Part shown: piece by piece, positions 3,980-49,390 of the stretch | Layout: each line of letters opens with the position of its first letter | Numbering within the stretch: the first letter of the stretch is position 1 | Origin: an uncultured Methanosarcinales archaeon | GTDB taxonomy: Archaea; Nanobdellota; Nanobdellia; Woesearchaeales; CAYSVS01 | DNA length: 64,000 bases | Reading direction: 5' to 3' | NCBI GenBank assembly: GCA_964589485.1 | Contig: CAZPRK010000002.1 | Location: forward strand, 49,825 to 113,824 | Notes under the pieces: generated by a model | What the model saw: only the letters and a program-made list of their open reading frames with translations | Database searches by the model: none | Told to the model about the DNA's origin: nothing | Position numbers and translations under genes: made by a program

Positions 3980-5458
3980 ATGAGTTATACTAAACGTGCA
4001 ATATTTGGAGCTAGTTTTATTATGTTATTTCATGTATTTTCAGACTTATTATCATATTTAACTAGAATTGTATTAGCTAGAAATTTAACTCCGACAGAAT
4101 TAGGATTATTTTACTCTGTATTTACATTTGTTATATTTTTTTTATTTTTTAGAGATTTAGGACAAGGTTCAGCTTTATTGAAATTTATACCAGAATTAAG
4201 GTTATCTAAGAAATATAATGAAATTAAAACTTCAATTTTTTCAGTAATTTCAATGCAAGTTGTAAGTTCAATGATATTTATTTTAATTATTTGGCTAATT
4301 GCAGATAAATTAGCTGTTTCATATTTTCGTGATTCTTCAGCTGTAGGTTTATTACAATTAATGTCTATTTATGTATTTTTTAGTATTTTTTATATTTTAT
4401 TTAGGAAAGTTTTTCACGGGTTTCAAAGTGTATTTGTATTTGCATCAATGGAGTTTGTTAAAGCTTTTACCATATTAGTTTTAGTTTTAATAGGATTATC
4501 CTTTTCTACTACACCTTTAGCTCCAATGATTGCATATGCATTAGTATCTCCGATTATAGTTTTATTATATTTTCCTTTATTATTAAAACGATTTAATTTA
4601 TTTAAATATAAAATAAAAAATGTTGTTCCAGTTTCTAAAAAAATATTTTGGTTTGGTTTACCAATGTTTGCAACTTCAGTAGGAAGTAAAATTATAGGAT
4701 ATGTGGATACTTTAATATTAACTTACTTTAGACCGTTAGCTGAAGTTGGAGTGTATAACGTTGTTTTACCTTCTGCATTAGTAATGTTATTTCTAGGGAA
4801 TACTTTAGCTTCAATTTCATTGCCTATTTCATCTGAATTATTTGCGAAAAAGGATTTAGTTAGACTTTCAGCAGGAATGAAATTAATATACAAATATTTG
4901 TTTCTTTTAATTATTCCTTTAGTATTTTCTTTATTTATTTTTTCTGAATTCTTTATTAATTTATTTTTTGGGAAAGAATATTTAAGTGGGGTTATTGCAC
5001 TTCAAATTTTATTAGTGGGAGTATTATTTTATTCAATTGCCGTAATAAACCATAACTTAATTTCAGGGATTGGTAAACCATTCGAAGTGACTAAAATTAT
5101 TATGGGAAGTGCTATTTTAAACATAGTTTTAAATTTTATATTAATTCCTTTATATGGATTAAATGGAGCAGCTATAGCAACAACTTTATCTTATTTGTTA
5201 GCATTAATTTTATCTACTGGGAAAGTTGTTAAGTTTATTAAAATAAAGTGGCCTATCGTAGAATGGAGTAAAGGTTTATTTGGAGCTTTTAGTTTTATTT
5301 TTACAGCTTTATATTTAAGACAAATTTTATTTGTTAATATTTGGGTTGAAATATTAGTAACTTTAAGTGTTTCTTTTATTGTTTATATTTTAGTATTATT
5401 TTTAACAAAAGCAATAGATATAAAAGAAGTGACCAAATATGCAAGGTTAGTGAAATGA
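3980..5458 (+). CDS. Wzx-type polysaccharide/oligosaccharide flippase (MOP superfamily)
   Basis: 492 aa polytopic membrane protein with 12 or more TM segments and the composition and length of PF01943-type Wzx flippases. Its stop overlaps the next start (ATGA). Confidence 0.7.
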   Translation: MSYTKRAIFGASFIMLFHVFSDLLSYLTRIVLARNLTPTELGLFYSVFTFVIFFLFFRDLGQGSALLKFIPELRLSKKYNEIKTSIFSVISMQVVSSMIFILIIWLIADKLAVSYFRDSSAVGLLQLMSIYVFFSIFYILFRKVFHGFQSVFVFASMEFVKAFTILVLVLIGLSFSTTPLAPMIAYALVSPIIVLLYFPLLLKRFNLFKYKIKNVVPVSKKIFWFGLPMFATSVGSKIIGYVDTLILTYFRPLAEVGVYNVVLPSALVMLFLGNTLASISLPISSELFAKKDLVRLSAGMKLIYKYLFLLIIPLVFSLFIFSEFFINLFFGKEYLSGVIALQILLVGVLFYSIAVINHNLISGIGKPFEVTKIIMGSAILNIVLNFILIPLYGLNGAAIATTLSYLLALILSTGKVVKFIKIKWPIVEWSKGLFGAFSFIFTALYLRQILFVNIWVEILVTLSVSFIVYILVLFLTKAIDIKEVTKYARLVK

Positions 5459-6711
5459 ATAGAATTGAATTTATTAAATCTGTATTAGTTAAGTTAGATT
5501 CTAAATCAATTAAATATTGTATATTGAGAAATTATGATTTTCTTCTGCAGAATAGATTTAATGTAAGTAAAAGTGAAAGAAGTATTGATATTGTTGTAGA
5601 AAATATTGATTTGTTTGATAAAGTAATGATTGACTTAGGGTTTCAAAAAAGAAAACCTTCATTTTCATTAAAACATGTATCTTATTTTACATTTAATGGG
5701 TTAGATTTAGTTAGTTTTGATGTACAAATTAACGGAGTTCATTGGAATGATATGTGTTATTTTAATGTATTAGAAAATAGAGTAAAAAAATCTTTTTTTT
5801 ATGTTCCTTCAAATGATGACATGATTGTTATGTTAATATGTCATTCCATACTAGGAAAAAGGTTTTTTAAGCCAGAATATAAACAAATTATTTCTAATAC
5901 TAATTTTGGTCAAGATTACGTTCTAATTCAGTTGACTAAAGTTTTTGGAAATAATGCTAAAAGTATTCTTGATAAAATAAATAAGAATGATTTTAAATTG
6001 AATTTTTATTTACTTTGTTTAAAATTTATATTTAATAAAGTAAGCCATATTAAAATATTTATATTGTTATTTTTTAGATGGATTAAATGGAAGAAATTTT
6101 TATTTTCTAGGCCTTTAATAAGTTTTATTGGTCCGGATGGAAGCGGGAAAAGTTCTGCTACTAGGAATTTAATTAGCTTTTTAGAAAGTGAAAATAGACA
6201 AATATGTTATTTTTATTCAGGAAGAGGAAGAAAAAATATTCTGCCAATAACTAAATTGGGAAGAGTATATAAGAAAAAAGAAAAAAATATGAAACATAAC
6301 TATTTTTTTAAAAATACATTATATATAATAAGTTCATTTATGTTTACATTAGATTTATTGTTAAGATATGTGTTTAAAGTGTTTATTCCAAGGAGATTAG
6401 GGAAAATTGTTATTACGGATAGGTATTGTTCAGATATATATTTAATGAAAAATGTTCCTTTGTTTATGAAAAAGTTTTTTTTAAGTTTATTTCCTAAACC
6501 AAATTTAACTTTTTATTTGTACCAAGATACTTCAGTTTTATTAAAACGAAGACCGAATGAAGATTTAGATAATTTAAACTACCAATTATCAATGTATAAT
6601 GAACTAAGTAATTATATGGATGCAATTAAAATTAAAACTGAGAATTATGATAAAGATAAACTAAATATTTTAACTAAATCGTATTCATATATTTTAAAAG
6701 AATGGTTTTAA
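5455..6711 (+). CDS. Fusion protein: N-terminal putative nucleotidyltransferase-like domain + C-terminal thymidylate-kinase-like P-loop domain
   Basis: C-terminal Walker A FIGPDGSGKSS and IVITDRYCSDIY (the Tmk-like DRY motif). The N-terminal ~200 aa (KYCILRNYDFL...SIDIVV) are homologous to the N-terminus of the ORF at 22144-23439. Confidence 0.5.
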   Translation: MNRIEFIKSVLVKLDSKSIKYCILRNYDFLLQNRFNVSKSERSIDIVVENIDLFDKVMIDLGFQKRKPSFSLKHVSYFTFNGLDLVSFDVQINGVHWNDMCYFNVLENRVKKSFFYVPSNDDMIVMLICHSILGKRFFKPEYKQIISNTNFGQDYVLIQLTKVFGNNAKSILDKINKNDFKLNFYLLCLKFIFNKVSHIKIFILLFFRWIKWKKFLFSRPLISFIGPDGSGKSSATRNLISFLESENRQICYFYSGRGRKNILPITKLGRVYKKKEKNMKHNYFFKNTLYIISSFMFTLDLLLRYVFKVFIPRRLGKIVITDRYCSDIYLMKNVPLFMKKFFLSLFPKPNLTFYLYQDTSVLLKRRPNEDLDNLNYQLSMYNELSNYMDAIKIKTENYDKDKLNILTKSYSYILKEWF

Positions 6712-7742
6712 TATAATTTTAAATATTTTTCTGCAATTTTTTTATTTGAAAATTCTTGAGATATTTTGAATGCTTGTTCAATTTTAATTTTACTTGGGTT
6801 TTTTAACACTAAATCTATTTCTTTTGCAAGTAAATTTATATCTTTAGGCGGAACTAAATTAACACTATTTTTAGTGATTTCTATAATTTCTGGGATAAAC
6901 GTAGTAATGACTGGAGTTTTAGATGCCATTGATTCTAATAAACATGATGGGTTTCCTTCAGTTCCCTCAATACTAGGATATGCTAGAACTACAACATCAG
7001 CCATAGAAACATATTCGTAAATGTTAATATCATTAAATATAAATTGAGTATTCTTAATGTTTAATTCTTTTAACATGTTATTATAAAAGTTAATTTTTTC
7101 ATCAGTGAAAGATCTAAATGCCATTATACAAATTACATTTTCTTTTACTTTTGGTAAGGCTTGAATTAAGTAATCTATACCTTTATTAATCCTCATAGCA
7201 CCATAATAAAAAATAACTTTACCTTTAATGTTATATTTTTGTTTTAATTTTTCTTTATTTCTTGGTTTAAAATTTAAAATATCTATATTAGAATGAATTA
7301 TTTTTACTTCTTTTTTTAAGTTAAGTTTATTTCTTGCCAATATTGTTGGAATTGTAACAATGTCCATTAAGTTTAATGGGGATTTCATTAATGAATTAAG
7401 TATTTTTGATTTAGAGTATGATTTTAATGTATGTATTAATTTTGGATTTGTGCAAGCTTTACTTGATATATATGTAGCTAAAGACATGATTGGGCTTGAA
7501 CTAAATCCATGTATAATATCAAAATCAATGTTAATCTTTTTTATTGTTTTATATCCGAATAATATGTTATTGTATAACCTATATACGTTTCCTTCAACTT
7601 CTGGCAAATTTTTATGTTTTCTTGCAATTATAACTACTTCATGTCCTTTACTTGAATAATATTCAGATAAATGTTTCAATGTAAGCCAAGTAGCTTCTTT
7701 TTTATTACTTAAATGACTTGAACTGATTAATGCAATTTTCAT
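6708..7742 (-). CDS. GT4 (group 1) glycosyltransferase
   Basis: 344 aa. C-terminal EGTEGNPSCLLESMASKTPVI matches the GT4 E-x7-E motif. Confidence 0.75.
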   Translation of the reverse strand: MKIALISSSHLSNKKEATWLTLKHLSEYYSSKGHEVVIIARKHKNLPEVEGNVYRLYNNILFGYKTIKKINIDFDIIHGFSSSPIMSLATYISSKACTNPKLIHTLKSYSKSKILNSLMKSPLNLMDIVTIPTILARNKLNLKKEVKIIHSNIDILNFKPRNKEKLKQKYNIKGKVIFYYGAMRINKGIDYLIQALPKVKENVICIMAFRSFTDEKINFYNNMLKELNIKNTQFIFNDINIYEYVSMADVVVLAYPSIEGTEGNPSCLLESMASKTPVITTFIPEIIEITKNSVNLVPPKDINLLAKEIDLVLKNPSKIKIEQAFKISQEFSNKKIAEKYLKLY

Positions 7743-7823
7743 AATAGGTTGGAGAATGTGGTTGTTTTTAAATCATTCTAAAAAAACCTGTAATTTTATA
7801 TACTACTCTGGATTTGCCAAAGT

Positions 7824-9188
7824 ATGTTTAAATTTATTAAGAAATTATTTGGAAAAAAGAAAGTTTTTGTATTAGGAATAGATGGAGCTCCTCCAGAATT
7901 AGTTTTTGATAAATGGATTGATGAATTGCCTAATATTAAATCATTAATGAAAAATAGTGTATATGGAAAGTTAAAAAGTAGTATTCCTCCTTCTACTATA
8001 GTTGCATGGAGTTCAATGTTAACAGGGAAAGATCCAAGTCATTTTGATGTTTATAGTTACACTACAAAAGATGAACATAATAATTCTGTGTTAACTAACT
8101 CTAAAAATGTAAAAGATAAAAGGATTTGGAAATATATGGATGAAAATAATAAAAAATCAATTTTACTTAACATTCCGTTAACTTATCCTGTAGAAGAAGT
8201 AAATGGTATAATGTTAAGTGGGTTTTTAACTCCAAAATTTAACGAAAAAGCTGTATACCCTTTAGAAATTAAGAATGAAATTTTATCTCAGTTTCATGAT
8301 TATGCTTTTGATGTAGGAGTGGGATTGGCAGGATACAAAAACATTGAATCTAAACAAATGATAACTGCAGTAAATAAAATGACTATGCAACAACTTAAAA
8401 TTACTAAAGATTTTCTTAAAAAAGAATGGGATTTTTTTATGACTGTGTTAATTGGTTCAGATAGAATGCAACATACAATGTGGAGATTTATGGATGAAAA
8501 ACATAGAAGGTATGAAGAAAGTGAATTTAAAGATTCTATTAAAGATTATTATAAATACTTAGATAGGGAGATAGGAGATTTAAAATCTCAGTTAGATGAA
8601 GATACTTATTTTTTTATTTTATCTGATCATGGGTTTGATAGAATGGACGGAAGGTTTAATTTAAATGATTGGTTAATTCAGGAAGGATATCTTGTAATGA
8701 AAGAAGATATACAAAATCAAGAAAAACTTGACTTTAAAAAAGTTAATTGGGATAAAACTAAAGCTTATGCAGTTGGAGCTTACTTTGGAAGAATATATTT
8801 TAATAAAGTAGATATTCAAGATGAATTAATAGAAAAATTAAAACATATTAAAAATGATAGAGGAGAAGAAATGGATACAGTGTTTCATAAACCTAAAGAA
8901 GTTTATTCTGGAGAATATCTAGAAAGTTCACCTGATTTGTATGTGTTTTTTGATAACTTAAGATGGGGAGTTAATAATGATGTAGGGAATGAAGGATTGT
9001 ATTCAGAAAAAACTACTAAAGGGAGTGATGATGCAGGACATGCCCCAAACGGATTATTTTTATTAAATCATAATTCTATAACTGAAGAAAATATTAACGC
9101 GGATATTTTAGATATATTACCTACAATATTAAATATTTATGAAATAAAACATAATTTAGAAGGAAAAAATTTAATCAAGGTATCCTAA
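7824..9188 (+). CDS. Alkaline-phosphatase superfamily protein (type I phosphodiesterase/nucleotide pyrophosphatase family, PF01663-like)
   Basis: N-terminal VLGIDGAPPELV...STIVAWSSMLTGKDPSHFDVY matches the GxDG...TxPxWxSxxTG metal-site motif of PF01663 proteins. No TM helices. Confidence 0.65.
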   Translation: MFKFIKKLFGKKKVFVLGIDGAPPELVFDKWIDELPNIKSLMKNSVYGKLKSSIPPSTIVAWSSMLTGKDPSHFDVYSYTTKDEHNNSVLTNSKNVKDKRIWKYMDENNKKSILLNIPLTYPVEEVNGIMLSGFLTPKFNEKAVYPLEIKNEILSQFHDYAFDVGVGLAGYKNIESKQMITAVNKMTMQQLKITKDFLKKEWDFFMTVLIGSDRMQHTMWRFMDEKHRRYEESEFKDSIKDYYKYLDREIGDLKSQLDEDTYFFILSDHGFDRMDGRFNLNDWLIQEGYLVMKEDIQNQEKLDFKKVNWDKTKAYAVGAYFGRIYFNKVDIQDELIEKLKHIKNDRGEEMDTVFHKPKEVYSGEYLESSPDLYVFFDNLRWGVNNDVGNEGLYSEKTTKGSDDAGHAPNGLFLLNHNSITEENINADILDILPTILNIYEIKHNLEGKNLIKVS

Positions 9189-10490
9189 TTCTTTTAAACG
9201 TAGCTTAACGTCTTCTTCTTCATCTTTAGAATAAAATTGTTTATCTTTATTTTGAATTTTTTCGTAATCTTTTTTAACAATTGTAAAAGAATTTTCAAAA
9301 AGATCTAAAACTTTTCCAGACATATTATTATCTATTGGGTTTTTCATAATTTGAAGAATTGTGGGAGTAACATCTAATACATGTGCATCTATTCTATGAT
9401 CTTTTTTAATTCCTTTACCAAATGCAATAAAAATTCCATCTGGAGAATCTTCGTGTTCACCTGATCTAATACTTTTATCGTTATAATCCTTTTCCTTTAT
9501 TGATGAAATTCCATGATCTGAAACTATAACTAAAGTATGACCTTCTTTAATGAACTTTCCAATTTGTTCATCTAAAAATTTATAATATTTGCTAATTATA
9601 TCTTTATATTTATCAAGTAAAGATAAATCTGCAAATTTAAAATCTTCGGGTTTATGATATTGCCAGAAAATATGTTGAATAGCATCCAATCCTGATAAAT
9701 ATAATGCATTAAATTCAACATTAAACTCAGAACTAATCTCAGAAACAAATAAATCTGACCTGTATGCTTGCGCAAAAAAATTAATTCTCTCATTTTTAAT
9801 AAGTTCTTTGTTTTTAATTTTTTCTTTATCTTCATCATTAAATGAATTAAAAAAAGATGGAATTGAAGAAAGGGAAGAATTAAAAACTGATTCTTTCTTT
9901 TTATCAATTAAGTTACTTAAACTAATTGGATAAAATTCTTCACCATTAGAAATTGATTTTTTATTTTTATAATATGCTTTAGTGGTTTCTATTACTTTTT
10001 CTGAAATTATATATTCATTGATAGGTTTAACTGGCCATGTTGTTAAAAATCCAGTAACTCCACATTTAACATTATTTTCAGATAAAATTTCCCATACAGT
10101 TTTACATTTTCTGAAAGAACTTGTAGTTAAATAATTTCCACCAATTCCAAGTTTTTCAAATAAATTTCCATATTTTAACATTGAGTAAATGTATGCTTTT
10201 TTTAAAAAACGTGAATTAAATTTATTAGATAATCTATTTGGCCAGTCTATTAAAAAGTTAGAAGAAATATCTTTTTTATTTAAAAATAAATTTGTAAAAT
10301 AAGATATTCCTGATTCTTCTGGAGTTCTTCCAGTAATAATAGAGTTCCAAATTGCAGGGCTTTTATATCCTGGAAGGCTTTTCAATGAAGCTGTAGTTCC
10401 TTCATTAATTAGTTTCTTAAAGTTAGGTAAATCTAATGAATTTATAACTTCCCATGATGCTCCATCAATTCCTATAAAAGTTAATTTCAT
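9171..10490 (-). CDS. Alkaline-phosphatase superfamily protein (PF01663-like), paralog of 7824-9188
   Basis: FIGIDGASWEV...SPAIWNSIITGRTPEESG and VIVSDHG motifs. Convergent with and overlapping its paralog. Confidence 0.65.
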   Translation of the reverse strand: MKLTFIGIDGASWEVINSLDLPNFKKLINEGTTASLKSLPGYKSPAIWNSIITGRTPEESGISYFTNLFLNKKDISSNFLIDWPNRLSNKFNSRFLKKAYIYSMLKYGNLFEKLGIGGNYLTTSSFRKCKTVWEILSENNVKCGVTGFLTTWPVKPINEYIISEKVIETTKAYYKNKKSISNGEEFYPISLSNLIDKKKESVFNSSLSSIPSFFNSFNDEDKEKIKNKELIKNERINFFAQAYRSDLFVSEISSEFNVEFNALYLSGLDAIQHIFWQYHKPEDFKFADLSLLDKYKDIISKYYKFLDEQIGKFIKEGHTLVIVSDHGISSIKEKDYNDKSIRSGEHEDSPDGIFIAFGKGIKKDHRIDAHVLDVTPTILQIMKNPIDNNMSGKVLDLFENSFTIVKKDYEKIQNKDKQFYSKDEEEDVKLRLKELGYLD

Positions 10491-13117
10491 TTTAATTTAG
10501 TTGGACTTTTAATTTGCCTATAATTTTGATTTAAATTAGTTATTTCAGAATGTTGTTTCAAAAAAGTAATTGTTTCACTTAATGTACAATTTTTCCCTAG
10601 AGCTTTAAATGTTTCTCTAATAACTTTTAAGTCTTCAGGAGTATCTAGAGTTAACCTAAATTGACCTTTTTCATTTTCATTTGCTTCAAATAAAGCTATT
10701 TTAAACATTGAAGGATCTTTTAAAAACCAAGTCATATATTCTGTATCTTTTGCTTCTTTAACATAAGTTTGAGCTTTTTTAAGACAAGAAACATTAAAAA
10801 TTTCCGCATTAAATCCAATAGGGACATCTTCAACACCAGTATAATCTGCTTTTTCTTTTAAATGGAATTCAATCATTCTATCTATAAATGAAGCATCCAT
10901 TAAAGGATTATCTCCTGTAGTTCTTACGATAATTTCTGCATCTTCAATTTCAACGCATTTTAAAAATCTATCCATGACATCTATTGCTGACCCGCTAAAT
11001 GATTTAACATTTTTTTGAGAAGCAATTTCAAGTAATTCTTTATCCTCATCTAAATCAGAAGTACATAGTATAACTTCTGATAACTTAGATTGTTTCAACC
11101 TTTCTAACATTAACCCTATTGAAGTTTCACCTTCAATTTCAGCTTTAGCTTTCATTGGTAAACGTTTAGATTTTAACCTTACTGGAATTAAAGTAACTAT
11201 TTTTCTTTTAACGTCATTATAATTTATACCTTCATCAAAAGCAATGTCTCTATTTAATTCTCTGTTAATTAAAAGTGAACTTTCACTTGGTTTAACATTT
11301 CCTTCTAATGTTCTTTTGAATGAAATATCACCTGAAGTTAATACGTGGCCTTTCTTTAAATCTTTAGAAGCTACAATATATTTTTTCATTTTTTTTCTAT
11401 ATTCCAAGTCTCCAGAATGTAAATCCATATTATCGTTGCCTAATGTACGTTCAAATTCTCTAATTTTAGTTATAACATTATTTAATTCACTTGGGTTAAG
11501 GCTAGACATATAATCAAACCCTTTCAAACTCCTGTCGTCTGTAACATGTTTTTCTATTAAGTTTGCTCCGAATGCAAAAGCGTTTACTGCAATATCTTTA
11601 GATAGTTCAGTTTCAGCATCAGTATGATCGTGATAACAAACTGGTAAGTTAAACTCTTGTTTTAAATATTTAATTCGGTTTAGATTAACATCTTCAGGAG
11701 TTGTTGGAAAATTTTGTAATCCGTATACTAAAATTAATCCAACTTTATATTTTTCAATAACATTAATAGCATCTCTAATTTCATCAATAGTTGAACCACC
11801 TAAATATAATAAAATTGTTTTTCCTTTCTTTGCTACATGTTCAAGTAAAGTATGATTACTTATGTCGCTTGCATGAATACTATATGCAGCAACATATTTT
11901 TCAGCCAAATTTGCCATATTTTCATCAAAAACATCTGTTAATATATCAACGTCAAAAGTTTTAGCATATTCTAATATTTCATTCCAATCTTCAATTTGAA
12001 TGTTTTTTAAGTCTTTATATCCAGGATGTCTTGTACTACATAGTTTATCTGCATTAAATAATTGAAATTTAATTCCATCTACCTTTGAATGTAAAGCAAT
12101 AATTTGTTTTAATTTCTCTTTATCTCCGCAATGTGAAGAAGCAACTTCAGCAATAACATAACATCTTTTATTTGAAATTTCTTTATTTCCAATAAATGTT
12201 TTTGTTAAGTTATTATAATTATTATAACTATCTTCAATTAACTTAAAATTGTTATGACTGTTAAGGATTTCTAATACACCTGAAGCATTAGGTGCGTATT
12301 TTTCAATTTCTCTTATAACTTGGTTAAAATTAATTAATCCTTCACCAACAACCTTGCCCTCATCTTCACCCTTACAACCAGTTGAATCGGAAACATGAAC
12401 CCATTTAATTCTATTTCCTGCCATTTTAATGTAATTTTTAATATTTTTTAAAGAATAGGGGTTTATTATATCCATTGCAGGAAATGTAATTTCGTTTTGT
12501 TTGTAATATAATTCTGCTAATTTGAAATGACTTATATCTAATACAAATCCATGATTCCCAAGTCTAGAATTAATATCTTCAAAACAAACATCTATAACAT
12601 GATGTTCATCTGATGAAGCACATGCAGGAGGTGAATTTTCAAGACAAACTTCAATATAAGAGTTTTCACAATCTTTTAATATCTTATCGTAAGCTTTTTT
12701 TGATTTAATTAATAATTGTTTTCTTAGTTCAGTGATATCTTGTAGTTTATTTGTTTTATAACCTAAATGAACAATTAAAATAACTTCTTTTCTATGGAAG
12801 TTACTAAAAGTTTTAATAGAATTAACCATGTTATTATATAATTCTAAATCTTCATCTTTATATTCTTCAAATAAAACATTTTGAATAATGTTATCTACTG
12901 TATGGAATGCAATTTTTTCAATTTCATTATCTTGAATAAATTGTCTTAATTCTAATAACTTATTTAGAAAATCTTTATCTAAATCTGATTTTAATAGATG
13001 TATTTCTAGTATTTTGTCTCCTTTAAATTTATTAAAGTATTCTTTATAATTTGCTAAATCACTAACTAGACCTATTTTCATTTTCAACCCATTCAAATGT
13101 TTTTTTAATTCCTTCAT
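10487..13117 (-). CDS. Trifunctional nonulosonic-acid enzyme: N-terminal TIM-barrel (sugar-phosphate isomerase/epimerase-like) + NeuB-type nonulosonate synthase with SAF domain + C-terminal CMP-nonulosonate cytidylyltransferase (NeuA-like)
   Basis: 876 aa. The middle region (CYVIAEVASSHCGDKEKLKQII...) is NeuB-like, followed by a SAF-like segment (LVASKDLKKGHVLTSGDISFKR). The C-terminus (IVTLIPVRLKSKRLPMKA...IVRTTGDNPL) is an acylneuraminate cytidylyltransferase fold. An alternative start at the internal Met would place it at 13081. Confidence 0.8.
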   Translation of the reverse strand: MKELKKHLNGLKMKIGLVSDLANYKEYFNKFKGDKILEIHLLKSDLDKDFLNKLLELRQFIQDNEIEKIAFHTVDNIIQNVLFEEYKDEDLELYNNMVNSIKTFSNFHRKEVILIVHLGYKTNKLQDITELRKQLLIKSKKAYDKILKDCENSYIEVCLENSPPACASSDEHHVIDVCFEDINSRLGNHGFVLDISHFKLAELYYKQNEITFPAMDIINPYSLKNIKNYIKMAGNRIKWVHVSDSTGCKGEDEGKVVGEGLINFNQVIREIEKYAPNASGVLEILNSHNNFKLIEDSYNNYNNLTKTFIGNKEISNKRCYVIAEVASSHCGDKEKLKQIIALHSKVDGIKFQLFNADKLCSTRHPGYKDLKNIQIEDWNEILEYAKTFDVDILTDVFDENMANLAEKYVAAYSIHASDISNHTLLEHVAKKGKTILLYLGGSTIDEIRDAINVIEKYKVGLILVYGLQNFPTTPEDVNLNRIKYLKQEFNLPVCYHDHTDAETELSKDIAVNAFAFGANLIEKHVTDDRSLKGFDYMSSLNPSELNNVITKIREFERTLGNDNMDLHSGDLEYRKKMKKYIVASKDLKKGHVLTSGDISFKRTLEGNVKPSESSLLINRELNRDIAFDEGINYNDVKRKIVTLIPVRLKSKRLPMKAKAEIEGETSIGLMLERLKQSKLSEVILCTSDLDEDKELLEIASQKNVKSFSGSAIDVMDRFLKCVEIEDAEIIVRTTGDNPLMDASFIDRMIEFHLKEKADYTGVEDVPIGFNAEIFNVSCLKKAQTYVKEAKDTEYMTWFLKDPSMFKIALFEANENEKGQFRLTLDTPEDLKVIRETFKALGKNCTLSETITFLKQHSEITNLNQNYRQIKSPTKLK

Positions 13118-15691: not shown

Positions 15692-17247
15692 CCATTAGTT
15701 ATAGGCATTCGTCTTCCTGTTCCGAAAGCTCTATGAGTAATTCTAATTCCAGTAGCTGCTTGTTGTCTTTTATATTCATTTCTATCTACTAAATTAATTA
15801 TTTTTCTTACGATTTCTTTATCATAGCCATTATTAACAATTTCATCAAAACCTTTATCATTTTCAATGTAACTTTTTAATATTGGATCTAAAATATTATA
15901 TTCTGGGAGAGAGTCACTATCTTTTTGGTCTTCTCTAAGTTCAGCACTAGGTTCCTTCGTAATAATTTCATTTGGAATAATTTCTTTTTCTTTATTGATA
16001 TGTTTACAAATTGCATATACTTTTGTTTTGAATACATCTGAAATAACTGATAATCCACCAGACATGTCTCCATATAATGTTGCATATCCAACTGAAGTTT
16101 CAGATTTATTTCCTGTTGCAAGAACTAAATATCCAAATTTATTAGATAATGCCATTAATAAATTTCCTCTAATTCTTGCTTGGATATTTTCTTCAGCAAC
16201 ATTAAATTGTGTATTTTGAAATTGTTTATTTAAACTTTCAATATAACTATCAAAAATATTTTTTATACTTATTACGTCAAATTCAATTCCTAAATTATTG
16301 GCTAATTTTTCTGAATCATCTACACTTCCGCTACTAGAAAATTTACTTGGCATACTTATTCCTATTACATTTTCTTTTCCTAATGCTTCGACTGCTAATG
16401 CGCAAGTTAAGGCAGAATCTATTCCTCCACTTAATCCTAAAACTACCTTAGAAAAACCATTTTTATGAACGTAATCTTTTAATCCAAGAACTAAAGCTTT
16501 TTTGATTTCTTCTTCTTCAAAATCTTTATTAAATTCTATCTCTTTTTCAAAATCATTTATAATTTTAAAACTTTCTTCAAAACTATTTGCTTGAAAAACT
16601 ATTTTCCCTTCTTTAGAAAAAACATAACTTTTTCCATCAAACACTAAATCGTCTTGCCCTCCTACTAAGTTAACATAAACTACAGGGACATTATGTTTTT
16701 TTGCTTTTTCTGACAAAATAGTTTCCCTTAATTTATATTTTCCATGATTAAATGGAGATGCAGAAATATTTATTATTAATTCAGCTCCTTGGTTACATTG
16801 ATCTTGACAAACTTTATCAATCCAAATATCTTCACAAATATTAATTCCTATTTTTTTCCCAAAAATTTCTACAATGTTACTTTTTTCACCTGGCGTAAAG
16901 TATCTTTTTTCATCAAAAACATCATAATTTGGAAGTGATTTTTTATGTTCTATATGGATTATTTTACCATCGTGGATTAAAGCTGCAGCATTGTATAATT
17001 TATCTTCAATTTTATCAACAAATCCAATGATTGCATATTTTTTGCAATGAGAAGCAATTTCATTTAATGCTTTTAAATTAGTTTCAATAAATTTATTTTT
17101 AACAAGTAAATCTTTTGGAGGGTATCCAGTTAATGCTAATTCAGGAAAAACAACTAAATCTGTTTTATCTAAATAACTTAATATTTTTTCTTTATTTTTT
17201 TCAATGTTTCCCACTATGGGGTTAATTTGAGCTATGCCTATATTCAT
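15679..17247 (-). CDS. Glutamine-dependent NAD+ synthetase family protein (N-terminal nitrilase/CN-hydrolase + C-terminal NadE PP-loop). May act as a PseA/WbpG-like amidotransferase in this sugar context
   Basis: 522 aa. The PP-loop motif is GLSGGIDSAL. Two-domain architecture. Embedded between NeuB and UDP-sugar dehydrogenase genes. Confidence 0.75.
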   Translation of the reverse strand: MNIGIAQINPIVGNIEKNKEKILSYLDKTDLVVFPELALTGYPPKDLLVKNKFIETNLKALNEIASHCKKYAIIGFVDKIEDKLYNAAALIHDGKIIHIEHKKSLPNYDVFDEKRYFTPGEKSNIVEIFGKKIGINICEDIWIDKVCQDQCNQGAELIINISASPFNHGKYKLRETILSEKAKKHNVPVVYVNLVGGQDDLVFDGKSYVFSKEGKIVFQANSFEESFKIINDFEKEIEFNKDFEEEEIKKALVLGLKDYVHKNGFSKVVLGLSGGIDSALTCALAVEALGKENVIGISMPSKFSSSGSVDDSEKLANNLGIEFDVISIKNIFDSYIESLNKQFQNTQFNVAEENIQARIRGNLLMALSNKFGYLVLATGNKSETSVGYATLYGDMSGGLSVISDVFKTKVYAICKHINKEKEIIPNEIITKEPSAELREDQKDSDSLPEYNILDPILKSYIENDKGFDEIVNNGYDKEIVRKIINLVDRNEYKRQQAATGIRITHRAFGTGRRMPITNGWKE

Positions 17248-18581
17248 TCTAACCAGTGTGCATCTCCAGCTTCATGGTATTCAACTGTTTCTGGAAATTC
17301 AATTTCTTTCCAAGTACCCATGTTATCTAATATTAATTTTACATCTTTTGTTTTTTCTAAAATTTCAGAATAAGTAGTGTAAGTATATTGCATGTGCGGG
17401 GCAACAAGTAAAATTGTATCGCTTCCTTCCAATCCGTCAGGGAATGAAACACTTTCACATCCTGTAATACTTTTTATTTCTTCATCAGAATAATAAGGAT
17501 CATTTACTTTTACTTCAATTCCTTGTTCTTTTAATTTTTTTGCAATCGGAATTGCTGGACTTAATGTGTGTACTTTTAAATCTCCTGTATATGCAATTCC
17601 TAATAAAGTAACTTTTTTAACTCCTCTTTTTATTAAACTATTTACAACTGTTTCAGGTTGCATAAAATCAGTTTTAAGTGATTCTTTAATTAAAGTTAAT
17701 TTTTCTGGATATTTTGCTCCCTCTAGAACATATTGTGGAGCTAATGGGATACAATATCCACCTGTTCCGAAACTTGGATGGAATGTTCCGATGTTCCATT
17801 TAGTTCCTGCCATTTTTAAAACTTCAGTCATATTCATGTCAGGGTAAGCTAAACTTAATTGGTTTGCAAAAGTAATGTCTAATTGCCTATATGCGTTTTC
17901 TATACTTTTAACAATTGCGGCATGTTTATGATCTTTTGCTTCTAAAATTGTATCGCAAATTATGTTTAAAACTTCTGCCATTAATTTAGTTGTTTTAGTT
18001 GTGGTTCCGCCAACAACCCTTGGAAGAGTTTTTAATGTTTTATCTGATTCTGTGAACCAATCTCTTCTTGGTGCAATTCCTAACAAAATATCTACTCCTA
18101 CCTTTAAACCATTACTTTCAAGTAAAGGTATGACTATATTATCTGTTACTGTAGGAGTTAATGTACTTTCAACAATAATTAAAGGAGGATGATCTAAGTT
18201 TAATTTTTTTATATTTGTAATTTTAAGAATAACGTCTTTAAGAATATCATGGAACGGTTTTCCGTTCATTTCAGTAGGGATTGTAATTAAATGTACAGCT
18301 ACATCTTCATGGATTAATTCTTCCCAGTTAGTTGTTGCAATCATACGTTTATCTTTTGCTAATTTTCGTACATCAAAACCAAGCCAAAATTCAAAATTCG
18401 GTATAGTGACTCTTCCATGATTAACATCATCTACTCTTTCTAAATTAAGATCTGTTCCAACACATTTTACTCCTGCTTTTGCAAAATATGAAATAGATGA
18501 GAAACCAATGTAACCTAATCCCCAAACACCAATTTTTTTATTTCCGTTTTTTAATTTTTCTTTTAAATTCATATGATTCAC
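17244..18581 (-). CDS. UDP-glucose/GDP-mannose dehydrogenase family enzyme (nucleotide-sugar 6-dehydrogenase, WecC/WbpA-like)
   Basis: N-terminal KKIGVWGLGYIGFSS (GxGYxG NAD-binding motif); 445 aa. Confidence 0.85.
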   Translation of the reverse strand: MNHMNLKEKLKNGNKKIGVWGLGYIGFSSISYFAKAGVKCVGTDLNLERVDDVNHGRVTIPNFEFWLGFDVRKLAKDKRMIATTNWEELIHEDVAVHLITIPTEMNGKPFHDILKDVILKITNIKKLNLDHPPLIIVESTLTPTVTDNIVIPLLESNGLKVGVDILLGIAPRRDWFTESDKTLKTLPRVVGGTTTKTTKLMAEVLNIICDTILEAKDHKHAAIVKSIENAYRQLDITFANQLSLAYPDMNMTEVLKMAGTKWNIGTFHPSFGTGGYCIPLAPQYVLEGAKYPEKLTLIKESLKTDFMQPETVVNSLIKRGVKKVTLLGIAYTGDLKVHTLSPAIPIAKKLKEQGIEVKVNDPYYSDEEIKSITGCESVSFPDGLEGSDTILLVAPHMQYTYTTYSEILEKTKDVKLILDNMGTWKEIEFPETVEYHEAGDAHWLE

Positions 18582-18702
18582 CTTTCTAAGATTTTGATAT
18601 TGTTGGAGAATTTAGTATTGGCTTATAAAATTTTCTTTATTTTGCGCGCTTTTTTCTTGAATTTACGCAACCTTTATAAATGTAAAATACATTTTTGTTA
18701 AA

Positions 18703-18912: not shown

Positions 18913-18953
18913 TTCCATAACCTTTTAATACCTTATATAATTCTGCGAATTAA

Positions 18954-20474
18954 ATGAAACATAATCTTGATTATTATTTTAATTATGAGAATATTTTAGA
19001 TCATTTCGCTAAAGATTGGAATACTAAAGATGTTAATGGGTTTGTTTTTGATAAAGAATTTCAAATAAATGACGTTCCAGTTTCTTGGTTTTTAGATCGA
19101 TTTTTTGCAGTGAATAATATTCCTTCTACATTTAACATTTTAAATATTTTACATGAAAATTATATGCTAAAAAAAGAATTAAATCCTATTAAAAAAATAT
19201 ATTACAAAACATTATCTAAAACTTTATCTAAATTTTTATTGTTTAATGAAAAACGAAAAATTAATTTAAGAAATAAGAAGTTAGAAGAAAATAAAATTTT
19301 ATTTTTAACTTATACTAATCACATTCCTAATTTTAAAGATGATTCTTCAATATTTAGACTAGGTAAATTAATTTCGTTAACTGAAGATAATTTAGTTGTT
19401 GTTTGTGATACAATGAGTAATGTAAAAACATCTAAATTTAAAGAAATAGATCATATGATTTATGATTTTGTAGATGAAGAATCAATGAAAATAGCAGATA
19501 AAATTTCAACTGAACTTAATACAAAGTGGAACACAATAAATAAAAAAGAAATATTTGGAGATTTATATAGTTACATTGAACATGCATTAAATTTTTTTAT
19601 GTCAAAAGAATTTTTATACCTTATTGTTTTATATTATAACGTTGTAAATAAATTATTAATAAATCAAAAAGCAAGCGTATTATCCTCTCATAATAGTTTA
19701 TATGAAAGATGTATTATGATGGCTTCTCATAAATTAAATAAACCTTGTTATATAATTCAACATGGAACTGGAGCAGGAACTGCAAATCCTAATGCAACAG
19801 AAAGTACTAAATTTTTAGTTTTTTCTGACATGTATAAAAAAAGGTTAATGAGTTTTGGTATAACTGAAAAAAATATTGAAATTGTAGGGCCTATAATATT
19901 TGATGAAATAAATTCCTTTATTGGTAAGTCTAAGCCAAGTAATCAAATATTGTTAGTAACTGAACCTTTTGTTGAAAGGAATATGTTGGATGAAGGTTTT
20001 TACTTTGAAAGTATTAAAAAAATATTGTTAAGCATTCCAATAAACATTCAAGTTAAGATTAAGATGCATCCTAGTGAAAAGTTATATGATAAATATGTTA
20101 AATTAATTAAAGAATGTAGTTTGAGTAATGTTGAAATTATTAATCAAGTTGGAGTAAATGTGTTATATGAAGCAATAAATAATTCTAATATTATAATTGA
20201 ATTTGGGTCTACTGTTGCAATAGAAGCTATGATTTTAGATAAACCAGTAATAACAATAAATTTAAGTTCTGGGACAGGAAATTATGAAATAATTAAGAAA
20301 AGTAAAGCAACAATGGAAATTGAAATAGATAATTTAACTATATCAATTAAAGAGTTAATGACTGATGATAGTTTAGTTGAAAAAAGAAAAAAAGCAGTTG
20401 AATCAATTTGTGGAAAAATTGACGGAAATGCATCTAAAAGAGCTATTGATATTATTACCAAGAAAACTTTATAA
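18954..20474 (+). CDS. CDP-glycerol glycerophosphotransferase-like protein (TagF/TagB family, GT-B)
   Basis: The C-terminal segment NSNIIIEFGSTVAIEAMILDKPVITIN resembles the TagF LITDYSSxxFDxxxxxKPxI motif; 506 aa. Confidence 0.5.
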   Translation: MKHNLDYYFNYENILDHFAKDWNTKDVNGFVFDKEFQINDVPVSWFLDRFFAVNNIPSTFNILNILHENYMLKKELNPIKKIYYKTLSKTLSKFLLFNEKRKINLRNKKLEENKILFLTYTNHIPNFKDDSSIFRLGKLISLTEDNLVVVCDTMSNVKTSKFKEIDHMIYDFVDEESMKIADKISTELNTKWNTINKKEIFGDLYSYIEHALNFFMSKEFLYLIVLYYNVVNKLLINQKASVLSSHNSLYERCIMMASHKLNKPCYIIQHGTGAGTANPNATESTKFLVFSDMYKKRLMSFGITEKNIEIVGPIIFDEINSFIGKSKPSNQILLVTEPFVERNMLDEGFYFESIKKILLSIPINIQVKIKMHPSEKLYDKYVKLIKECSLSNVEIINQVGVNVLYEAINNSNIIIEFGSTVAIEAMILDKPVITINLSSGTGNYEIIKKSKATMEIEIDNLTISIKELMTDDSLVEKRKKAVESICGKIDGNASKRAIDIITKKTL

Positions 20475-20497
20475 ACTACTTTATTTTCTGAATTTAC

Positions 20498-21157
20498 ATG
20501 GAAGAAAAATTTGATTTTAAGGCTGCAAGCAGTTATCATAAAGAATGGAGTACTTATGTGTTTGATATTATAGGCAATCCACTTGCTGTATTTTTGGTAA
20601 AATATACTAAAATAAGTGCAAATCAAACTTCAATTCTTTCATTTATATTTGCTTTAATTGGAGGTTTTTTTCTTTTTAAGGGAGGATATCAAAATCAAGT
20701 TATAGGTGGATTATTTGCATTTTTATATAATTTATTTGATATGATTGATGGAAGAATTGCTAGAGCAAGGCGTGAAACTTCTTTATATGGGAAATGGTTA
20801 GATGCAATGATTGACTTTTTTGTATTTCCTTATTTAATATTTACATTAGCGTATGGAATGCAAACATATTTAGCTGCAGTGATAGGTATGTTGGCAATTG
20901 TTAGTTATCAAACGCATTATTTAATTGTACATTTTTACAAGTCGGAAATTCAAGGGAATAATAAAAATATTCATATAAATGGAAAATTTGAATGGTTAAG
21001 GTATGTATATGGTTCAAATTTTTTTTATTTGTTTTTACCTATTGCTTTAATTTTAAATCATCCAATGTATGTATTATTATTTTGGGCAATATTTGGTAAT
21101 TTGTATTGGTTTGTAATTATTTTTGTTCAACATCTTAATATGAGAACTGAAAAATGA
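20498..21157 (+). CDS. CDP-alcohol phosphatidyltransferase family membrane protein
   Basis: DMIDGRIARARRETSLYGKWLDAMID matches D-G-x2-A-R-x8-G-x3-D-x3-D. Multi-TM, 219 aa. Confidence 0.8.
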   Translation: MEEKFDFKAASSYHKEWSTYVFDIIGNPLAVFLVKYTKISANQTSILSFIFALIGGFFLFKGGYQNQVIGGLFAFLYNLFDMIDGRIARARRETSLYGKWLDAMIDFFVFPYLIFTLAYGMQTYLAAVIGMLAIVSYQTHYLIVHFYKSEIQGNNKNIHINGKFEWLRYVYGSNFFYLFLPIALILNHPMYVLLFWAIFGNLYWFVIIFVQHLNMRTEK

Positions 21158-22152
21158 AAATATATTTTAATCTTGATTTAGATCCAAGAAAATTTGAAGG
21201 TCGAACTAAACTTTCAGTAGGATTAAGGGATTTTTTAATGCAAAATGGTCATGACATAACTAATAATCCAAATGAAGCTGATATTTTACATTTTCATAGT
21301 AGTGGGGTATTTGAATCTTATCGTGCATATAAATTAAAGAAACAGTTAAATAAACCTTGTATTTATACTTTATATTCAACAGCTGAAACTCATCCTATTA
21401 ATCATATTATTAATTTTTATGATCAAAGAAAATATTTTTCAAAAACTGCAACTAATGGATTATTAAGTTATTCTGCAATAATTCCTTTAAAATTTAGAAG
21501 TATTTTTTTAAAAAAGTTAGATAAATTAGTTGTTCCGTTAAATTATATGAAACAAAAATTGTTTTCAAATACAGAAGTAATTTCTTTTGGGGTTGATGTG
21601 AATAAATTCATTCCTAGTAAAAATGAAAATAAAAAGGTTAAGGTAGCTTATTTTGGTCATCCTAGTACATTTAAAGGAATGAATGATTTTATTGAAGCAT
21701 CTAAACATTTTTCAGAAGAAGTTGACATTGAATTATATCCAAGTGTTGTAAATGAAAAATTAAAAGCATTAGTTGCAACTAACCCAAGAATTAAGTTAAT
21801 GGGTTATGTGGAGGACATAGTGGCAGTTTACAATTCAGTTGACATTGTTGTTTTGCCATATAGAATGTCATTAGGAACAGTAGCTAATCCGTTAGTGTTG
21901 TTGGAAGCAATGTCTTCAGGGAAATGCATAATAACAACTAATTTGAAAGAATATACTGAGATAGTACAAGATTCTTGTTATTTAGTTGATCCTTTTTCAC
22001 CAAAACAAATTGCAGATGCTGTAAATAGTTTAGCAAAAGATGAAAGTTTAAGAAAAAAGTTAGGTGAAAATGCAAGACAAAGAATTGTAAACAGTTATGA
22101 TGAAAATGTTATGTTTAAGAAATATTTACAGTTATATGAAAGTTTAAAGTAA
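21154..22152 (+). CDS. GT4 (group 1) glycosyltransferase
   Basis: ANPLVLLEAMSSGKCIITT matches the GT4 E-x7-E / EAM motif; 332 aa. Confidence 0.75.
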   Translation: MKIYFNLDLDPRKFEGRTKLSVGLRDFLMQNGHDITNNPNEADILHFHSSGVFESYRAYKLKKQLNKPCIYTLYSTAETHPINHIINFYDQRKYFSKTATNGLLSYSAIIPLKFRSIFLKKLDKLVVPLNYMKQKLFSNTEVISFGVDVNKFIPSKNENKKVKVAYFGHPSTFKGMNDFIEASKHFSEEVDIELYPSVVNEKLKALVATNPRIKLMGYVEDIVAVYNSVDIVVLPYRMSLGTVANPLVLLEAMSSGKCIITTNLKEYTEIVQDSCYLVDPFSPKQIADAVNSLAKDESLRKKLGENARQRIVNSYDENVMFKKYLQLYESLK

Positions 22153-23439
22153 TTTTTTCCAAATTTTATTTAATACATTTTTAGTTGTATTTTCTAAAGT
22201 ATTGTTTGTGTTAATTACCTCACAATTAAGTAATTTGCTTAATTTAATGTATCTTTGTTTTTGTTCTAATAAATATACCTTTGGAGCTACTTCTCTTTCT
22301 TTTGTTTCTTTTTCATAAATTCTTTGTCCTTTGTCTCTTGTCATTAAAGCTTCAATATCAGCATCTAAAACAAAAACTTTATCTGGACTTGGAAATAAGT
22401 AGATTAATATTTTTAAAATAAAACTTTTATCCGCATTAGAATATTGTCCGTAATTATCATAATAATATCTATCAGTAATAATAATTTCACCTTTTCTTAA
22501 TTTAGGATATATTTCAAATACGTATCTTGCTAAGTATTCAAAAAATGTGTAAACATAAATTAGATTTTTAATTATGTTTGATTGTTGTTTTTGTTCTTTT
22601 TCCTTAAATAACTTAGTTCCTTTTTTCTTAAGGTTTTTCGAAATAATTTTTGTTACAGACAAATAAGGTTTCCAACCAAAGTAATAAGCATTAATGTTAA
22701 CTCCCTTGAATTTTGCTAAATCTTCTAATGATTTAATTAAATTTTTACTTAAACTACTTTTGCCACTTCCATTTACTCCGTTTAAAGTTATTAAAAAACC
22801 TTTTCTAGATGGATTTAATTTTCTTAAAATGGATTTAATTATTTTTAATATTAAGTAAATAAAATTAAATACGTTTAACCTTGAAAAAAGTGCTCTTATT
22901 ATACTTAGCTTACTTATTTTATCTAAATTTTTTAAAACTTCATAGAACGGTTTTTTCCATTTATATTTTGTTAATTTTTGATTAATGAAATTCCAGTTTA
23001 AGTCATTAGTATTAATTTTGTTAATTAAATCTTTATGGAATGGTTTTATTTTATAGTTTTCAAATAATGCATGAGCAACATGAATTATTAATGAATTTTC
23101 TTTAGACGGGATGTGGTTTTTCATATTTTCAAAAACATCTTTTTTATCTATAGCTATAACGCCATGCCATGCAATTTCTCTATGTAAATGTATTGCTGTA
23201 ACTTCATTTGTCAGGTTAACATACATTCTTTTGTATTTTTCAATGTTTTCATCCATATATAATTTAAAATTTAATTCTTCTAAAATTATTGATGCTTTAT
23301 TATAATCTTGTGTTGTTTCAAAAAGAATATCTAGGTTTTTATTTTCTCCATTAAATATATGTTCACATTTGAATAGAATATATTTTAATTTATGTTTATT
23401 AAAAACATCTATTACTTTTTTAATATTATTGGGCGTCAT
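22144..23439 (-). CDS. Fusion protein: putative nucleotidyltransferase-like N-domain + thymidylate-kinase-like P-loop domain (paralog of 5455-6711)
   Basis: Walker A LNGVNGSGKSS; IIITDRYYYDNYGQ (DRY motif). The N-terminal KYILFKCEHIF...NLDILFE parallels its paralog. Confidence 0.5.
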   Translation of the reverse strand: MTPNNIKKVIDVFNKHKLKYILFKCEHIFNGENKNLDILFETTQDYNKASIILEELNFKLYMDENIEKYKRMYVNLTNEVTAIHLHREIAWHGVIAIDKKDVFENMKNHIPSKENSLIIHVAHALFENYKIKPFHKDLINKINTNDLNWNFINQKLTKYKWKKPFYEVLKNLDKISKLSIIRALFSRLNVFNFIYLILKIIKSILRKLNPSRKGFLITLNGVNGSGKSSLSKNLIKSLEDLAKFKGVNINAYYFGWKPYLSVTKIISKNLKKKGTKLFKEKEQKQQSNIIKNLIYVYTFFEYLARYVFEIYPKLRKGEIIITDRYYYDNYGQYSNADKSFILKILIYLFPSPDKVFVLDADIEALMTRDKGQRIYEKETKEREVAPKVYLLEQKQRYIKLSKLLNCEVINTNNTLENTTKNVLNKIWKKLL

Positions 23440-24625: not shown

Positions 24626-24697
24626 TAAAGGTTGTATTTAATTTATAAAAGTTTCCCAATAATAAATTTTATAAATATCTTTAGGTATGCAATAAAA

Positions 24698-49358: not shown

Positions 49359-49390
49359 AGTTTATAAATTGCTTTTTCTTTTTAATTCTC

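Follow-up and report, generated by a model that had tools for sequence, protein, structure and literature searches.

Two diverged fusions of a nucleotidyltransferase-fold domain and a thymidylate kinase-derived domain accompany glycosyltransferases in glycan loci of DPANN archaea

The closest described counterpart of the proteins characterised here is found in the pseudomycoidin lasso-peptide cluster, where the kinase PsmK installs phosphate(s) and PsmN then adds a hexose onto the phosphate (PMC6993621). PsmN needs PsmK, a mutant of its DxD motif (D134/D136) is dead, and the protein, putatively of the NTP_transf_5 type (PF14907), is described only as a member of "a family of uncharacterized nucleotidyltransferases" (PMC6993621). 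Here, we analysed a 64,000-nt archaeal fragment of very low GC content (26.7%; contig CAZPRK010000002.1), referred to as the window, in which two open reading frames (ORFs), ORF-A and ORF-B, each encode a fusion of a predicted nucleotidyltransferase (NTase)-fold domain with a domain derived from thymidylate kinase (Tmk). Comparison loci from other genomes carry L-numbers (L003, L129 and so on). In these genomes we observe a conserved three-part unit made up of a GT4-family glycosyltransferase (GT), a domain of the NTP_transf_5 type and a Tmk-derived kinase; by duplication, it exists as two specialised paralogs (groups A and B). As for PsmK and PsmN, a kinase is paired with an NTase-family protein, here fused or encoded by adjacent genes. 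However, PsmK is of the HPr kinase type whereas the kinase here is Tmk-derived, PsmN requires its two DxD aspartates while the window proteins have no DxD, and the context of a ribosomally synthesised and post-translationally modified peptide is replaced by a neighbourhood of glycosyltransferases, a flippase and AglB that lacks precursor and cyclase genes.

A parallel within glycan assembly is offered by POMK with fukutin/FKRP, which prime matriglycan on dystroglycan, and by phospho-alcohol transferases of the LicD type, where a glycan kinase and two paralogous NTase-fold enzymes go together with phosphodiester-linked substituents from CDP-activated donors. This likeness is a functional analogy only, CDP-alcohol and CMP-phosphonate genes adjoining group B. 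No sequence relationship is detectable (LicD gave no match to the window proteins even at E <= 10), FKTN and FKRP keep their DxD, and their kinase resembles eukaryotic protein kinases (ePK-like) and not Tmk.

A preliminary description of the window had proposed two ORFs sharing one two-domain architecture, and their coordinates, motifs and homology were all borne out (Table 1). ORF-A carries the motifs KYCILRNY...SIDIVV, GPDGSGKSS and TDRY, and ORF-B the motifs KYILFKCE...NLDILF, GVNGSGKSS and TDRY. The pairwise alignment suggested in that description places their homology far beyond chance: BLASTP aligned 283 columns, comprising the second half of the N-domain and most of the kinase, at 30% identity (E = 3e-19), and profile-profile alignment with hhalign, using profiles built from 102 homologs of A and 86 of B, covered the full length (412 columns, 99.9% probability, E = 5.9e-34). 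The N-domains alone were aligned over 174 columns with 97.3% probability (E = 2.4e-11) and the NTase core of about 115 residues alone with E = 1.7e-7. Based on these alignments, A and B are true, anciently diverged paralogs. They are the sole copies in the window, where a search for a third was negative.

Both C-terminal domains are predicted to adopt the three-dimensional fold of Tmk, with S. tokodaii ST1543 (PDB 2plr) as the closest solved relative. In HMMER alignments, the P-loop, DRY and lid residues match the corresponding Tmk residues (A: P-loop G226-K232, D322-R323-Y324 and lid R365/R366; B: P-loop G221-K227, D323-R324-Y325 and lid R368/K370). Invariant among the 102 homologs of A are G226, G229, G231 and K232 of the P-loop, R323 and Y324 of the DRY motif and R365 of the lid, and among the 86 homologs of B the corresponding G221, G224, G226 and K227, D323 and R324, and R368. 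Since the P-loop lysine, the Asp-Arg-Tyr motif and the lid arginine are invariant in each group, the phosphoryl-transfer machinery looks intact. The dTMP-kinase-like P-loop domain of the preliminary description, for which missing lid residues would have been adverse evidence, is thus confirmed in its fold, P-loop, DRY motif and retained lid arginines, but neither protein is a bona fide dTMP kinase. Both fail the NCBIfam dTMP-kinase equivalog TIGR00041 (A 22.2 bits and B 48.0 bits, cutoff 83.25), and Pfam PF02223 is passed by B (42.2 bits) but narrowly missed by A (26.4 bits, cutoff 27).

The R-E-P segment with which Tmk binds the phosphate of the nucleoside monophosphate (NMP) was skipped in the HMMER alignments to ST1543 and to the Aquifex, E. 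coli and human enzymes. In its place, group A has Y-x-G-R-G-R...LP...G..YK..EK and group B YYFGW.P, whereas canonical Tmks met incidentally in L139 and L141 do have the EP motif. P-loop and DRY are separated by about 20 residues more than in Tmk, the R-Y helix of Tmk is retained, and the positions of D228 and R257 in A are occupied by N223 and W256 in B. The fusions further differ from thymidylate kinase in their N-terminal NTase-fold domain, their occurrence as two paralogs and their glycan-operon context. We infer from the sequences a kinase domain that would be active on an acceptor other than dTMP. A lipid-binding lobe in place of the NMP lobe was considered and rejected, the hydrophobicity of the substituted lobe (median max-KD19 of 1.29 in A and 0.84 in B, with unfused forms reaching 1.2-2.1) being inconsistent across groups and a weak hint at most.

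For both N-domains, the predicted models show the Pol-beta NTase fold, an alpha/beta core followed by a helical subdomain, as in LnuA, ANT/KNTase, MenT and PF14907 (NTP_transf_5). The best structural match is the MenT1 toxin at 6-10% sequence identity, and PDB sequence-profile searches with the N-domain returned no match. The window proteins themselves barely match PF14907 (A 16.5 bits, E = 0.006; B no match; gathering threshold 31.2), and the link is secured by their relatives: many homologs carry precomputed PF14907 matches, and the unfused relative of L129 scores 47.3 bits against the same threshold and matches the hidden Markov model (HMM) of the group-B N-domain at E = 3e-31. The NTase-like character assigned to the N-domains in the preliminary description is therefore upheld.

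The active-site signature differs from that of these families. Unfused relatives, which pass PF14907, read K[ST]...DxD, whereas group A reads LRN...SxD...D and group B FKC...NxD...HxH, so that the triad is incomplete. The nucleotide-binding turn hG[GS] is lost in both, being L24-R25-N26 in A and F23-K24-C25 in B; the unfused relatives show MKS, IKS and IKT (hK[ST] in three of four) and, in L132, AKY. The acidic pair of strand beta-2 is S43-x-D45 in A (S in 87% and G in 10% of homologs) and N35-x-D37 in B (N in 97%), while DxD or ExD is kept in all four unfused relatives and all three long variants. At the position of the third carboxylate, A has an invariant D89 and B an invariant H84 (in H-L-H); histidine is also found there in the unfused L129 and L135, relatives showing either D or H. 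With the signature degenerate in this way, the role as nucleotide-activating enzymes given in the preliminary description is unproven. The N-domains are nevertheless densely conserved. In group A, R25, N26, D45 (nearly), H74, D89, Q91, W97, N98, D99, H130, S131, K135, R136 and K139 are invariant, 16 of the 36 invariant residues of the protein being located in this domain, and in group B the same is true for D37, E67, K70, H84, H86, W91, H120, H123 and E127. This conservation in spite of a degenerate signature argues for an N-domain site that may be functional but re-wired.

Each ORF belongs to its own ortholog group, whose members are 40-50% identical over their full length and come from sources named Woesearchaeota, Nanoarchaeota or Nanoarchaeia. 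An HMM search of 1.84 billion representatives at E <= 1e-30 yielded 287 family clusters, defined at 50% identity, with complete members nearly all between 420 and 460 aa. In 58 GTDB species-representative loci, informative titles name the same groups, besides one Patescibacteria locus (L063) and one Micrarchaeota fragment. The family is almost confined to DPANN archaea. About half of the GTDB loci (L007-L062) are titled "uncultured Methanosarcinales archaeon" (metagenome-assembled genomes (MAGs) labelled TPA_asm) and have the same gene order as the Woesearchaeota and Nanoarchaeota loci; these titles look like placeholder taxonomy. The Patescibacteria MAG (JBMOKY010000001.1, 10001-11215) encodes a group-A-like fusion with 33% identity between two GT4 genes, and this copy in the bacterial candidate phyla radiation (CPR) may reflect gene transfer between DPANN and CPR. 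In public annotation, homologs are called "thymidylate kinase" (JGI), "nucleotidyltransferase family protein" or "hypothetical protein", and no paper describing this module in DPANN came up in literature searches. What is new is the module together with its glycan context; both domain superfamilies are known, and the fusion is visible in databases under generic labels.

To describe gene neighbourhoods, we called ORFs in 58 loci centred on A and 64 centred on B and searched these ORFs with the window proteins; 28 and 22 of the loci, respectively (50 in total), formed the full-flank subsets. The usual order around group A is FLIP+ A+ GT1a-. Group A adjoins an ortholog of the flippase in 40 of the 58 loci and in 20 of the 28 full-flank loci; the corresponding counts for GT1a are 42 and 22. 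The stop of the flippase gene and the start of ORF-A share 4 nt in the window (ATGA). The gap between flippase and A holds one or two small membrane-protein genes in L016, L020-L022, L029, L030, L033, L035, L041, L051 and L062; their products, absent from the window, are about 146 aa long without a Pfam match or about 164 aa and YdjM-like, each cluster occurring in 9 loci. A and B share a contig in at least six other assemblies but usually belong to different operons, since only 4 of the 28 loci have B within 6 kb of A. The two alkaline-phosphatase-family genes listed in the preliminary description are present in the window, and their products are paralogs without a transmembrane segment (24% identity, E = 1e-13), but they are not conserved partners of the fusions. 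Neither occurs in any full-flank A- or B-centred locus (0 of 28 and 0 of 22), and in the wider set they were found in 0 and 1 of 58 loci. As none of the 50 full-flank loci carries either gene, the pair is specific to this genome.

Table 1. Coordinates of the two fusions and of further features (nucleotide positions in the window unless another locus is named)
Feature	Coordinates	Strand	Remarks
ORF-A, group-A fusion	5455..6711	+	418 aa; predicted model, pLDDT 94.2
ORF-A N-domain	5455-6096		residues 1-214
ORF-A Tmk-like kinase domain	6097-6708		residues 215-418
ORF-B, group-B fusion	22144..23439	-	431 aa; predicted model, pLDDT 93.5
ORF-B N-domain	22813-23439		residues 1-209
ORF-B Tmk-like kinase domain	22147-22812		residues 210-431
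Wzx/MOP-type flippase (Polysacc_synt)	3980..5458	+	Pfam
GT1a	6708..7742	-	GT4-family glycosyltransferase, convergent with ORF-A; Pfam
Two soluble PF01663 (alkaline-phosphatase superfamily) paralogs	7824-9188 and 9171-10490	+ and -	Pfam
AP_endonuc_2-NeuB-SAF-CTP_transf_3 fusion	10487-13117	-	876 aa; the first domain is a xylose-isomerase-like TIM barrel
NeuB-SAF-methyltransferase fusion	13967-15691	-	574 aa; C-terminal SAM-dependent methyltransferase
UDP-sugar dehydrogenase (UDPG_MGDP_dh), then glutamine-dependent NAD-synthetase-like protein	15679-18581	-	second protein: CN_hydrolase + NAD_synthase
GT-B protein	18954..20474	+	506 aa; most conserved partner of group B
CDP-alcohol phosphotransferase	20498..21157	+	219 aa, polytopic membrane protein; PF01066 39.8 bits, cutoff 22
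GT1c	21154..22152	+	GT4-family
GT1b	23426..24625	-	GT4-family, directly upstream of ORF-B with 14-nt overlap
ORF divergent from the GT1b - B operon	24632-25369	+	245 aa
Large same-strand ORFs	27863-43502	+	see text
AglB-proximal core	45393..50841	+	STT3-PPIase fusion 45393-48386; GT2 48373-49035; DUF2304 49032-49358; GT4 "GT1d" 49723-50841
Pyruvate-kinase barrel-PUA_2-ATP sulfurylase-APS kinase fusion	50897-53641	+	914 aa
PEP mutase-cytidylyltransferase fusion	1654-2958 (in L087)		

Group B sits near AglB in a stereotyped string, STT3 - GT2 - DUF2304 - GT4 - GT4 - [CDP-alcohol transferase or methyltransferase] - GT1c-type GT4 - B - GT-B protein of about 510 aa. The AglB-proximal block of the window is contiguous in other genomes with the string GT1b ... 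GT1c - B - GT-B. Of the 22 B loci, 10 have an ortholog of GT1b in the vicinity of B. The gene directly preceding group B in other genomes is of the GT1c type and most often overlaps B by 4 nt; genes of this type also precede the unfused pairs of NTP_transf_5 and Tmk-like genes. The idea that GT1a and GT1c form a duplicated pair mirroring A and B was dropped, the difference being marginal only (56.6 vs 52.8 bits). The AglB/STT3 protein of the window has a PPIC-type peptidyl-prolyl isomerase (PPIase) fused to its C-terminus, and the L003 homolog is fused to FKBP_C instead. These conserved partners, namely GT4 glycosyltransferases, the Wzx-like flippase of group A and the GT-B protein of group B, had been missed in the preliminary gene set.

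The GT-B protein accompanies group B in 16 of the 22 full-flank loci and is most likely the gene previously called a TagF-like glycerophosphotransferase. Its conserved family motifs, QHG and K-l-H-P-r-E, fit a TagF/TagB-type or a nonulosonic-acid (NulO) transferase. Searches with the 506-aa protein gave a marginal Epimerase_2 match, no Glyphos_transf/PF04464 match at E <= 0.01 (one ortholog matches PF04464 weakly) and no match in a PDB profile search. The best family matches, both below cutoff, are TIGR04396 and BFO_1060, a T. forsythia transferase for a pseudaminic/legionaminic acid (Pse/Leg) derivative whose family is TagB-like and uses CMP-activated nonulosonates (PMC5420450). Based on these matches, the protein is probably a CMP-nonulosonate transferase that is TagB/TagF-like at the level of the fold, and the earlier label was fair to this extent only. 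The CDP-alcohol phosphotransferase, also part of the preliminary description, is genuine, as it passes PF01066 and matches AF2299 at E = 7e-10; its gene accompanies group B in 10 of 22 loci but group A in only 5 of 28.

The module also occurs unfused with its order unchanged, as GT1c-type GT - NTP_transf_5 - Tmk-like in L129 and L134, while L132 has methyltransferase - NTP_transf_5 - Tmk-like. The NTP_transf_5 and Tmk-like genes are adjacent and overlapping in all three loci, and the GTs of L129 and L134 score 62-73 bits against GT1c but at most 43 against the other window GTs. In rare long variants, the fusion is extended by a methyltransferase and an ePK/APH-like kinase domain. A division of the unfused pairs into two ancient lineages matching A and B was rejected: the N-domains of all unfused forms score nearer to B than to A, and no clear pattern emerges for the kinases.

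In six B loci (L068, L077, L087, L090, L091 and L094), we found a phosphoenolpyruvate (PEP) mutase fused to an N-terminal cytidylyltransferase. These loci were first spotted by a PEP-mutase motif, and the identification was then confirmed by TIGR02320 (391 bits). They match an earlier remark in the literature that Ppm is flanked by Tmk and PF14907 (PMC8942020). Because the PEP mutase fusion lies directly upstream of CDP-OH_P_transf - GT - B in L087, L090 and L091, the sequences imply that the glycans of some DPANN archaea would be phosphonate-decorated. A different set is found directly upstream of B in L003/L004 (5515-9856) and L097, consisting of a 980-aa CTP_transf_like + PPDK_N + PEP-utilizers protein, a Peptidase_C26/GATase and an NTP_transferase. 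We take this set to resemble Campylobacter Cj1418/Cj1417/Cj1416 of the O-methyl phosphoramidate pathway. Phospho- or phosphono-decoration near group B is plausible because of the CDP-alcohol phosphotransferase in 10 of 22 B loci and the PEP mutase fusion in six. The teichoic-acid-like phosphodiester decoration of the preliminary description is plausible in this respect; two of its supports fell away, as the PF01663 genes are not conserved and the TagF-like gene is better read as a NulO transferase.

Taken in its general form, the conclusion that A and B are GT-coupled enzymes of glycan pathways, and not dTMP kinases, is one we hold with considerable confidence. Our favoured reading, in which A and B belong to a phosphotransfer module that is coupled to a GT and acts on a glycan intermediate, is drawn by analogy with PsmK/PsmN and is tentative, with a probability of roughly 0.4. 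Each fusion would be a dedicated cytoplasmic accessory enzyme of its cognate GT4 in surface-glycan assembly, A serving the branch of the Wzx flippase and B the AglB-proximal branch that ends in the NulO-transferase-like GT-B protein. The kinase domain would use ATP to phosphorylate a hydroxyl or phosphate on a sugar or lipid-linked intermediate made or consumed by the partner GT. A precedent is LpxK, a P-loop enzyme that works at the cytoplasmic face of the membrane and phosphorylates a sugar hydroxyl on a lipid-linked glycan intermediate. The N-domain would bind or further derivatise the phosphorylated intermediate, and the product would be a phosphate- or phosphodiester-linked glycan substituent. 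This specific phosphate-installing mechanism, itself derived from the analogy, is doubtful.

Several points weigh against the phosphotransfer module. The turn hG[GS] and the first Asp of DxD (now S43 and N35) are missing from both N-domains, and B carries a His where the third carboxylate is expected. Since these canonical motifs are lost while the unfused and long relatives keep DxD, the N-domains may be non-catalytic or may perform a chemistry unlike that of PsmN. Further, a nucleotide substrate would be just as compatible with descent from Tmk and the retained R-Y helix, the segment replacing the NMP lobe shows no consistent hydrophobicity, and gene adjacency is compatible with action before, with or after the GT.

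Among the alternatives, a salvage module for donor activation is unlikely but the most serious competitor. The kinase would make a sugar- or alcohol-phosphate and the NTase-fold domain an NDP- or CDP-donor for the GT4 or the CDP-alcohol transferase, in a manner similar to Fkp or AmgK/MurU. The strict GT - NTase - kinase adjacency of fused and unfused forms would be expected in this case, DPANN archaea are scavengers, and the unfused and long relatives keep a canonical DxD; moreover, the CTP_transf_3 domain of a NeuB fusion was the only cytidylyltransferase found in the window to feed the CDP-alcohol transferase. However, A and B themselves are without hG[GS] and the first Asp, and Pol-beta-fold NTases nucleotidylate hydroxyls, not phosphate monoesters; to our knowledge, there is no sugar-1-phosphate nucleotidyltransferase of this fold. 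The location of A and B in the conserved core of otherwise variable clusters better suits a generic step than a sugar-specific donor, and near A the CDP-alcohol transferase is infrequent (5 of 28). Somewhat less probable again is a pyrimidine-NMP kinase for local supply or recycling of dTMP or of the CMP released by NulO and CDP-alcohol transferases, with the N-domain as a regulatory or nucleotide-binding appendage. Such a role would follow from the fold and chemistry of Tmk, with the acidic P-loop residue (D228 in A), the R-Y helix, DRY and lid conserved, and from the "thymidylate kinase" label of JGI. It would also suit the users of cytidine-nucleotide donors that flank B (the GT-B protein with its HP motif, the CDP-alcohol transferase, the PntC-like Ppm fusion and the Cj1416-like genes). 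Against it, both proteins fall far below the TIGR00041 cutoff with the REP segment replaced by family-specific motifs, B has N223 and W256 at the positions of D228 and R257, the flippase and GT4 next to group A release no CMP, and L006 has a separate Cytidylate_kin gene in the same operon as B. Recycling alone would hardly explain two diverged paralogs with strongly conserved N-domains.

It is improbable that the fusions are non-catalytic or part-pseudoenzyme scaffolds or regulators whose nucleotide binding organises or gates the GT/flippase machinery, possibly as an A-B heterodimer. This would account for the lost NTase motifs and for the translational coupling of A to the flippase, and it could draw on the shared contigs in at least six other assemblies and on the dimeric action of KNTase/Lnu-type NTases. 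Yet all catalytic residues of the kinase are invariant, A and B are usually in different operons, and many invariant polar, histidine and acidic residues of the N-domains look like those of an active site (D45, D89, D99, H74, K135 and R136 in A; D37, E67, H84, H86, H120, H123 and E127 in B). We give even less weight to a role in glycan priming in organisms unable to make their own isoprenoid carriers: the Tmk-derived domain would phosphorylate scavenged polyprenol or dolichol, or its phosphate, the NTP_transf_5 domain would add the first sugar or phospho-substituent to that phosphate, in the manner of PsmN on phosphoserine, the GT4 would extend it and the co-transcribed Wzx-type flippase would export the product. 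This would explain the confinement to DPANN (plus one CPR bacterium), the invariant-core position in variable clusters, the replaced NMP lobe (markedly hydrophobic in unfused forms) and the finding that no MraY- or WbaP-type initiating transferase is recognisable among the window ORFs scanned with Pfam. A toxin-antitoxin or anti-phage NTase/kinase pair, to which the structural match with MenT1 might point, was rejected as extremely improbable. PADLOC gave P-loop noise only (E >= 0.0026) and PHROGs only "thymidylate kinase", MenT1 is barely similar in sequence, and the genes are embedded in, and translationally coupled to, glycan operons across more than 100 loci.

The remaining genes of the window are consistent with the nonulosonic-acid glycan locus recognised in the preliminary description, which is borne out by two NeuB fusions, one of them including CTP_transf_3. 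For archaeal N-glycans, nonulosonic acids are already documented (PMC6137143). The 876-aa fusion combines nonulosonate synthase and the enzyme for CMP activation in a single chain that also has an additional domain at its N-terminus, and orthologs of the 574-aa fusion occur in many related loci. The UDP-sugar dehydrogenase and the NAD-synthetase-like protein are kept as a pair beside the GT-B gene in L005, L006, L029 and L083, which suggests uronamide sugar formation rather than NAD synthesis. The 914-aa fusion beside the glycan genes combines the activities for synthesis of 3'-phosphoadenosine 5'-phosphosulfate (PAPS); such a fusion is also found upstream of CDP-OH_P_transf - GT1c - B in L068 and L077, and the L006 cluster has a sulfotransferase. 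Judged from these genes, the glycan is probably sulfated. The same-strand region listed in Table 1 contains large ORFs without a Pfam match (1075, 326, 801, 270 and 746 aa), a 1444-aa PKD-repeat protein and an NPCBM_assoc protein, whose products may be surface proteins and glycosylation targets. The divergent 245-aa ORF has no Pfam or NCBIfam match and no homolog in related loci.

DPANN archaea are uncultured or barely cultured symbionts whose surface glycans probably mediate host contact, and we know of no account of how these glycans are built. For annotation, the labels "thymidylate kinase" and "hypothetical protein" call for correction, and the fusions should not be counted as nucleotide metabolism in reconstructions of DPANN genomes. 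If the favoured reading is true, the logic of a kinase plus NTP_transf_5, so far known from a single lasso peptide, would extend to glycans. If the module installs phosphate-linked groups, it would provide the first enzymology for phospho- and phosphono-decorated archaeal glycans.

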